Shown piece by piece: positions 43,214 through 46,200 of a DNA stretch of 64,000 bases. Position 1 is the stretch's first letter, and each line of letters begins with the position of its first letter. The notes under the pieces were generated by a model. That model was not told where the DNA came from, ran no database searches, and saw nothing but the letters and a program-made list of their open reading frames with translations. The stretch is from assembly GCA_965649765.1 (NCBI GenBank), contig OZ287751.1, positions 70,556,001-70,620,000 of the forward strand. Direction: 5' to 3'. The stretch is from Bispira polyomma. Lineage: Eukaryota. The position numbers and the translations under genes are program-made.

Positions 43214-46200
43214 TTACTTGGTGTTCTGAGATCTTTTACCTTTATTTAAAGGTTGAGATGGAGTGGTAGTGATATGGTGGAAGTTGGAAGACCTGATGCT
43301 GTTTGGAGAATTTTTATTTACAGATAATTTTGTACAACGATACAAGAAGTTTTGAAATATATGATTTTTATAACTTTTAAAAGGCCAAAACCCCAAAAAA
43401 TAGAGGGAAGGAGGAATGATGGCAGCAAAAGTTTCAGGAATAATTGAAGCTGCATGGGAAGTGGATTCTAAATAAGTCCAAATAGCATCTGATTTCCAAC
43501 AACCATATTTTTGAATGTTTTGAAGTTTAATGTTATTGTTAAAAGCGAAGGAAGCACCAGATTTAGGAAAGCAATGAAAGGAATGTCCAGAATGAGGAAC
43601 ACTAATCTGTGATAATATATTTATAAGTGTGAGTTTTAATTTTGCTTCAGTAAGACATTTGCCCCGAATTCGGGGATCAGCCAATAGTGGAGCATGAGGT
43701 AAATTTGGATATTTAGCAAAATGGGTCTTTGCAGCCCTGACTGGGCACAGCCAGGGATTTTTCAGGCTTGGTAATTGAATTATATTCTGGTTCTGCCTGC
43801 TTTGATTTGTTTTTGACCATTTAATAATCATATGAATGCCAGGTGGTGAGAATATAATGTCTGACCTTGTCAGATGTCGGAACTGTCAGAAGTAGGGTCA
43901 AAATCAGTCAGGGTTGCTGGAGTCAAATTTGAAATCCTCAAGAAACCAATAAAGGCAAAAAAAAAGCTGTTCTGTATAATTCAGGAAAATCTAGCAACTG
44001 ATATTGACGATATCAAAAATTTTTTTGGTTTAGGTTGAAAAGTACAATCGATCATCAATGACCTCTGGTACAGTGCAATTCTTTGATTATAAAGTTGAGA
44101 ACTTTGAATGTTGAACCTCTTTTCAAAATACATAATAGCAGCCAAGTAGTTGTTAATAACTTTGTAAAAACTGACTGATGTAAGTATTCCATGAAGGCTA
44201 GTACTGACCCTAAGGTGAAAGTGTCTTCAAAATTAAAATATATTATAAAAGCAAGAAAAAGTCTCATTTGACTGTCATATTGTCGTGTCGTTCTAAGTCT
44301 CAGGTTGTTTGCCATCCTTTTCATTGCCACTTTCAGCAAAGGCCTGGCAGCTTCTGATGTCCCTAAAATTAGAAGTCATTTTCTAAAATAAAATGTGTTA
44401 AAGGAAGCTTACACATATTTAGTCTACTAGTCATCAAATCCTTAATCTCACTTGGAAACTGTCCCGCATTATGACACCTAGACAAAATATCTGTAAGAAT
44501 GTTGTTTTTACCAGTAATATGATCAATATTAATATCAATGTTGTAATTTGCACAAATTAACCACAAATTTCTCAGACACGTTGCTAAAATTACATCTTTA
44601 GTTTTTGACTTTATAACAGATACTACAGCGATGTTGTCTGACTGTATGCGGATTCGTGCATCTCGCCATTTGTCAGCCCATAACCGAAAAGCTACGAGTA
44701 CGCTTAGCATTTCAAAATGCACAATCGAATAGTCTTCTCTTATCTATTCTGGTATTGGTGCTGTAAAGGCATTAGCCTGTGAAACGCCCTCTATACCTTT
44801 GCAAGCAAGCGTCGACATGTAACAAAACATTGTTTTTAGAGTACTTGTATTCATAAATCATACTCCCATTAAAACTAATCAAAAATTTATTTAACTAGTT
44901 TAAGTCCTTCTTAAACTCATCATTCAAACACACGTGTTCGGAACTAGTTGAATCTCTTAAAATTTTCAGCATCCTGTTAAGGAAAATTCCAGAAGGTTTG
45001 ATGCACTTATGAATATCCAAAAGTTTGCCAAGCAGCAACTGATACTTTTGACAAATTTTTATAATCTAAACAAACTTCATGAATAGAAAGTAATTTTTCT
45101 TCATCTATACTTAAAGTGCCCTTTTTTGTATCAATGGTGAAACCCATACATGTTACCCTAGTATAAAGAGATACTAATTTTTTCTGATTTATGGGTAAAC
45201 CAATATCAATAAGCACTTTTTGTATTAACTCGTATGCTAAGGTGGCCTCAGTTTTAGTTTCCATGATAATAAAATCATCGATATAGTTGTATACTTTATA
45301 TCCATTTTTAGGTAACTGTATCCAAAACTCGCATAAATGCAGACATGCCGTGGGTGATCCCGAACGCCCAAGTTAAATCTACATAGTGTTTATCTCTCTA
45401 TTTATAACCTTATTTAAGGCTATCATAAAGATCAACTCTTATGTTCCGGAAAGCGTGCGAAACGTCCACCTTTGCTAGTCTGGCATCTTTACCTATACTC
45501 TTAATGTCTTCACCTATTTGGTCTATGGTTGGTATCTTAAAAAAAAACAGTGTCATCATATTTCTGCTTGTACGTGAAGTCATTCACAGATAGTTCTGCT
45601 GGATAAGAAATATTTAAATTTAAACGTCTTTGGACCCATTAGGGACTGTTAATAAAGGAGAACAATGAAATTCCTTTATTAAGTCATTTTTAGACACAGC
45701 AATAATATTACCCTTATCTGTTTCTTGTACAAAATACTTGTCAATATACTCCGGAAAAGCATTAGCAGAAAAATTATTATCAACGTGCTTAATGTCTAAT
45801 AACTGTCTTTCATGTTAAGAGATGGAAAAACCAAACCCTAAGTATTTCAAAACAATCTTATCGTCATAGTCCTTTAAGTAAGTTCTCCAAGGTTCTATGT
45901 TGAGTCCTGAAACTAAAGGTACACGAGTATCTATGTAATTTAGTTTCCCTGTAGCCTTGACTATGTCACTCACTTTTGTTAAAGTCTGAAAATCCTTAAT
46001 GTCCACAGGTTCTCCATCTGGTCCTATAAAAGAAAATTCTGACTTATCTGTAGGTATAAAACCATACTGTCTGCTACTATCATTTAAAAAACTTAATACT
46101 GTCCTCCTCATCACTAGTACAGTCCAAAGTCAACTCAGCCCTGTCCAATTCTTATGCAAATACAGCTACTGGTGAAGATGTGTAATGGCATGTAGTAGTT

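Follow-up and report, generated by a model that had tools for sequence, protein, structure and literature searches.

In retroviruses and gypsy elements, the last open reading frame (ORF), env, is reached by a subgenomic mRNA from which pol has been spliced out. Introns have reportedly been mentioned in some tyrosine recombinase (YR) elements, by Goodwin and Poulter in 2004. In Ty1/Copia elements, conserved alternative splicing yields, in addition to the full-length RNA, a subgenomic form that makes Gag alone (PMC5580714). Ngaro elements, of the order DIRS, are defined by gag, RT-RH and YR genes, by repeats in the arrangement A1-ORFs-B1-A2-B2 and by the absence of a methyltransferase (PMC4157794, PMC3783388, PMC8547959); in the accessible text of these descriptions, YR is a separate third ORF and splicing goes unmentioned. 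No paper was found for 'Ngaro' together with 'splice acceptor', and a Gag-YR splice is not described in the accessible parts of PMC7192593, PMC6681497, PMC4157794, PMC9341512, PMC9210276, PMC3783388, PMC3266345, PMC5633606, PMC8547959 and PMC5580714. An earlier mention is possible, as key reviews fall outside the literature searched.

Here, we describe an RT-RH/YR junction in Bispira polyomma and argue that YR is very probably made as a fusion to the N-terminal part of Gag, Gag(N)-YR, from a spliced RNA that lacks pol. YR would then be the predicted second exon of Gag-YR and not the separate third ORF of Ngaro descriptions. As with retroviral and gypsy env, splicing pol out of the genomic RNA would give access to the last ORF; there, however, the donor precedes gag or sits at its start, and Env is made, whereas here about half of Gag would remain on the integration enzyme. 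A spliced subgenomic RNA is likewise shared with Ty1/Copia, where it serves Gag alone, in contrast to the recombinase predicted here.

The window analysed is a stretch of 64,000 nucleotides (contig OZ287751.1, positions 70,556,001 to 70,620,000) and holds two elements of this kind, here termed the first element and the 44-kb element. Their parts are as follows.

17765..17773, minus strand: first element, TAA ending RH, then the acceptor TTCCAG; the predicted intron is 3,136 nt
20895..20900, minus strand: first element, predicted phase-1 donor caG/GTACGT in gag (slash, predicted splice point), its place matching the family donor
43171..43389, minus strand: B1 repeat, the end of the 44-kb element in the window copy; A2-B2 tail absent (repeat comparison)
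43400..44362, minus strand: predicted YR exon (Cre-like tyrosine recombinase), with frameshifts and altered catalytic motifs; fold from an intact relative
44363..44368, minus strand: predicted 3′ splice site TTTTAG, in which G at 44363 would be the last intron base, phase 1 to YR (cross-family conservation)
44369..44371, minus strand: pol (RT-RH) stop codon TAA (sequence reading)
44372..46746, minus strand: decayed pol (RT-RH), within the predicted intron (sequence comparison)
44376..44378, minus strand: TGA that ends the open YR frame on the upstream side of the acceptor, five codons ahead of the G codon
46810..47088, minus strand: gag 3′ remnant, starting 311 nt downstream of the donor position of relatives

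By the structural definition available from PMC4157794, PMC3783388 and PMC8547959, the 44-kb element is a decayed Ngaro-type retrotransposon, sharing with Ngaro the order gag/RT-RH/YR, the split repeats and the absence of a methyltransferase. Full-length family copies carry gag, RT-RH and YR in this order, with YR downstream of RT-RH on the same strand and RH ending at a stop 6 nt before YR. Full-length relatives also carry the A1-ORFs-B1-A2-B2 repeats (in family copy L024, split direct repeats A1 1891-2075, B1 7784-7999, A2 7993-8177 and B2 8729-8947), of which the window copy retains B1 alone. Pfam gave RT and RH only, and no methyltransferase domain, in five long pol ORFs; DIRS1-like or PAT-like membership is not supported, neither that domain nor (for DIRS1-like elements) inverted terminal repeats being found. 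In the copies examined, the region following YR showed no SGNH hydrolase. The genome of 1.035 Gb yielded 11,141 first-look candidate relatives, and the family of the 44-kb element comprises about 25-30 copies at 83-90% identity.

Many young copies (L071, L072, L074, L080, L075, L076 and the window copy at 43171) stop at B1 without A2-B2, while others have the tail; such copies may reflect either B1-B2 recombination or short daughters. In one family, three of five copies (L078, L082, L090) adjoin, on their upstream side, the same 177-189-nt tandem repeat, which suggests a preferred target. Elsewhere in the window lie an intronless 370-codon frame with a weak 7tm_1 match (22996-24108, plus strand), probably a host GPCR; remnants of an LTR-type RT-RH (850-2448, plus strand) and of a DDE_Tnp_4 transposase (36395-37472, plus strand); and two copies of a short SINE-like repeat that looks tRNA-derived (7172-7375 and 30411-30600). 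A candidate third YR element at 58.9-61.3 kb (58905-61321, minus strand) was rejected as a LINE-like remnant.

On the minus strand, positions 44378-44363 of the window read TGA CTT C TAA TTTTAG, directly preceded by AAA and followed by GGACATCAGAA. The final G of TTTTAG is the first base of the first YR codon (phase 1). Re-reading of the coordinates on the minus strand thus bore out exactly what the first-pass annotation had reported, namely the TAA-TTTTAG geometry, its phase and the TGA five codons upstream. The copy itself is dead: its acceptor is a leftover and its donor is gone, as had also been claimed, the gag remnant beginning 311 nt past the donor position. Exon 1 and the A (A1) repeat of this element were looked for and are absent from the window. 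In the first element, TAA (17773-17771) is followed by TTCCAG (17770-17765), again in phase 1. Outside the 9 nt of stop and acceptor, the two junctions have only 12 of 51 bases in common, and the two elements sit in separate well-supported clades of a tree built without named reference sequences. By chance, AG would be expected at one named position in about 5.5% of cases and TTNYAG in about 0.3%.

Within the family of the 44-kb element, AG is present in 19 of 20 copies. This was set aside as evidence since neighbouring columns are about 96% conserved, and the case for the acceptor therefore rests on comparison across families. YR starts were located with a profile of columns 19-100, excluding the junction, which gave 128 starts in 41 clusters at 85% identity from the animal's own genome and from metagenome loci. 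The AG is conserved and its phase is not random: a phase-1 AG lies at the YR start (allowing -1 to +3 codons around the expected position) in 40 of the 41 clusters, although these are related and their counts are not independent. A binomial p-value for this count was discarded for that reason and because five positions had been allowed. Position -3 is C or T in 39/40 clusters, and T occupies -6 in 36/40 and -5 in 35/40; these bases played no part in picking the site. With clustering at 70% identity, the phase-1 AG falls within one codon in 17 of 18 clusters and three codons later in the eighteenth. AG is depleted upstream of the acceptor, with a frequency of 1.3% in the preceding 25 nt compared with about 6% elsewhere.

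The junctions can also be read from the RH side. Two of 116 RH-YR junctions had no stop before YR and were left out; in 95 of the remaining 114, the first AG after the stop is the phase-1 AG at the YR start. Five of the 19 exceptions were inspected and are damaged copies with local deletions or substitutions, in four of the 19 another AG precedes the phase-1 AG, and most of the remainder look like frameshifted RH tails. Among 40 further copies, RH lies upstream in 38 and the AG is present in 36 of these. The TAA stop was rejected as a likely branch point, as its A lies only 6-7 nt from AG, nearer than is usual.

The first-pass annotation had proposed a search for the gag donor, and this was found in the middle of gag in full-length relatives, in phase 1. 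Full-length family copies have one strong donor, agG/GTAAGT, within Q-G-K-S-L-L-K-R-K-S-G-R, and GTAAGT is kept in 15/16 copies of that gag cluster. In a survey of 85 elements in 24 gag clusters, G/GTA lies just before a KS(G/Q)R-like motif in 23 clusters, and this mid-gag donor is the top score of its ORF in 18 of the 23. The 24th cluster has a different type of gag, whose top donor, aaG/GTACG, is in phase 1 in three loci. Donors were chosen with a generic scoring matrix and the choice by score inflates the consensus, whereas phase and column were unscored. The residue following the donor glycine is K, T, N, R or I, chemically unlike residues whose codons all begin with A. GGT accounts for 138 of 407 glycine codons in gag, and other donor-like sites in gag comprise five in phase 0 and three in phase 1. 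The donor and acceptor consensus of a GT-AG intron are thus present in matching phase. The conserved phase, the acceptor-like bases, the phase-1 gag donor that full-length relatives carry and the joined form described below from another species together support TTTTAG as a splice acceptor under selection, as the earlier reading had suggested from two elements.

On this evidence, TTTTAG is likely the 3′ splice site for a Ngaro intron whose 5′ end is the mid-gag phase-1 donor and whose length is about 3-3.7 kb; in the full-length family copy L034 the predicted junction would link 3124 to 6791. Splicing would remove the 3′ half of gag together with all of pol, and would yield Gag(N-half)-YR; in the family of the 44-kb element, the fusion, if translated, would comprise about 195 + 326 residues (about 520). 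That splicing takes place in this animal is suggested by the donor and acceptor motifs, their phase, their conserved positions, the absence of a conserved YR start codon and an exactly joined sequence from a distant relative. The unspliced RNA would provide Gag, Gag-Pol and the template for reverse transcription.

Gag-Pol itself would be made in different ways. In the window (20345-20300, minus strand) and in L072, L076, L078 and L079, gag ends in A AAA AAC, followed by a hairpin of GGCACTGC...GCAGTGCC, and pol lies in the -1 frame; A AAA AAC plus hairpin is likely a programmed frameshift, so that Gag-Pol in the clade of the first element would arise by a -1 shift at this site. In L038, L125, L128, L133 and L123, which belong to the clade of the 44-kb element, gag and pol share a frame that only one TAG interrupts (CAA/CAG TAG GAC-like), and in metagenome loci of other species (L161, L163, L164 and L168) a single TGA splits the frame. 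The single stop likely marks readthrough, which would also give Gag-Pol in the clade of the 44-kb element and would place two Gag-Pol mechanisms in one superfamily. A phase-1 acceptor for pol was sought as well, and no conserved one was found in 13 copies.

YR lacks a conserved start codon. In 24 of 40 clusters, neither the upstream sequence nor YR codons 1-25 contain an in-frame ATG, and some have none for 60-260 codons; the other 16 have an early or upstream ATG (codons 2-18 in 11/40, upstream in 7/40). The window copy has in-frame ATGs at YR codons 14 (44324-22) and 17 (44315-13). The caveat of the first-pass annotation that ATGs follow shortly downstream thus applies to the family of the 44-kb element and not in general. 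The frame after the AG folds in the model as a whole Cre-like recombinase: an intact family YR modelled from the acceptor onward (pLDDT 93) superimposes on Cre residues 28-341 (Z 23.8, rmsd 2.6, 289 aligned) at 12-14% identity, and has a confident first helix at residues 4-18. The Gag half would replace the short N-terminus of Cre.

These data bear on the alternative that YR is translated alone from an internal ATG (codon 14 or 17), by reinitiation past the pol stop or from an internal promoter, with the AG incidental. The clusters that do have early or upstream ATGs speak for it, and in the family of the 44-kb element a start at codon 14 is possible, as it keeps most of the Cre-aligned range, yet it would cut the predicted first helix. 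The alternative offers nothing to the majority of clusters that lack such an ATG and leaves both the acceptor bases and the gag donor unexplained; we regard it as very unlikely.

The predicted Gag-YR product has a counterpart in another species. Two metagenome contigs of separate assemblies, L172 and L174, carry a 139-residue ORF joined in frame to YR, while L180, of a third assembly, has the same YR (943/950 bases, with the same lesions) behind RH and TTTGTTTTGCAG. Identity between L172/L174 and L180 begins at the very base after CAG, and upstream of it only 9 of 40 bases agree. The 139 residues are the N-terminal half of a Ngaro-type gag and are 95% identical to the full gag P0121, which runs on LTG-EGH; all eight of eight homologues continue T-G-E-G-H at the break, which would fit a predicted G/GT GAR donor. 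A break at both predicted sites, to the base, seems hard to get except by splicing. This exact joined product comes from another species only and from one locus; its contigs may represent RNA or DNA, and they show the join and not the donor DNA itself. The gag type of L172 has one weak match in the B. polyomma genome (G000) and seems to come from another family than its YR; the closest full relative of L180, L168, has another gag type. At L172 865-1533, 360 nt upstream of gag and not after YR, lies an ORF that we take to be SGNH-hydrolase-like.

That L172 seemingly joins the gag of one family to the YR of another implies that the acceptor can take other donors, and so lends something to a second alternative, in which the acceptor is real and the donor lies elsewhere (in a neighbouring element, or in a leader exon within or beside the A repeat), giving YR a short leader and no Gag half. 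The systematic donor scan covered gag. However, the join in L172 is likewise at a mid-gag glycine, and the mid-gag donor, which keeps its position and phase in 23 of 24 clusters, is usually the best of its ORF; another donor is accordingly improbable to a high degree.

Spliced or processed forms were also sought more widely, in partial samples of the thousands of candidates. No processed copy was found in the animal's own genome among 300 YR matches judged by open-frame length, among 300 gag-exon matches, among 80 copies excised and read, or by sequence pattern; two YR copies without RH upstream were considered as processed copies and both proved to be other insertions. No Gag-YR fusion occurs among the 120 + 150 YR proteins listed, the majority of which resemble gene calls running from start to stop codon, and the viral contigs searched gave nothing. 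Three sequencing runs of unspecified kind cover the element evenly, as DNA would, and among the joints listed (15 in each of two mappings of these DNA-like runs, which had 12 and 18 further joints) none falls at the predicted intron. Within this material, no spliced molecule of B. polyomma was encountered.

The distance between stop and AG is less constant than the phase. Of 93 undamaged copies, 67 have a gap of 6 nt and the others one of 5, 7, 8, 9, 10, 13, 14, 15, 17, 21 or 33 nt; in six metagenome loci of other species it ranges over 24-334 nt and AG follows a pyrimidine tract. On the tree, the two window elements are separated by lineages whose gaps measure 13, 15, 17, 21, 33, 24 and 334 nt. 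The YR frame relative to RH is distributed 77/9/7 over the three frames among the 93 copies, and despite these changes of gap and frame the AG remains in phase 1 to YR. What stays constant is the phase, together with the location at the start of YR, and not the 6-nt spacing. Of the match that the first-pass annotation saw between the two elements, the phase therefore holds across families, while the stop plus 6 nt is merely the commonest gap.

A Pol-YR fusion, produced where RH ends through ribosomal frameshifting or readthrough of the stop and suggested by abutting ORFs, by a YR that may be in frame or frameshifted to RT-RH (in the accessible text of PMC3783388) and by L122 (G000:C9:6394770-6403770), where RH and YR share one 1,267-codon frame with the acceptor still present, is scarcely credible, since the variable gap (up to 334 nt in another species) and the occurrence of all three relative frames mean that no single frameshift or readthrough serves all, the YR frame of the window copy is open for only four codons upstream of AG, and the L122 frame reflects a one-base loss in a stop that its sister L123 keeps.

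The proposed Gag(N)-YR splice bears on the expression of the recombinase, the last ORF of these elements and often one without a start codon, for which the accessible text of the literature searched offered no answer, and it provides exact, testable coordinates. We consider it quite possible, if short of probable, that animal Ngaros generally make YR only as a spliced Gag(N)-YR, and that the Gag half packages YR into the particle and steers the choice of target. Ngaros without ORF1 lose their target preference, ORF1 setting the preference for insertion (PMC8547959), and such ORF1 dependence would follow from a Gag-YR fusion; the splice is thus a possible route for Gag to carry and target the recombinase. 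If it is true generally, the three-ORF map hides a retrovirus-like scheme of three products: Gag, Gag-Pol (by frameshift or readthrough) and Gag-YR (by splicing). The recombinase would be redefined as a protein of about 500-600 residues, not 330, and a Ngaro recombinase annotated or assayed from the bare third ORF would be a truncated protein.
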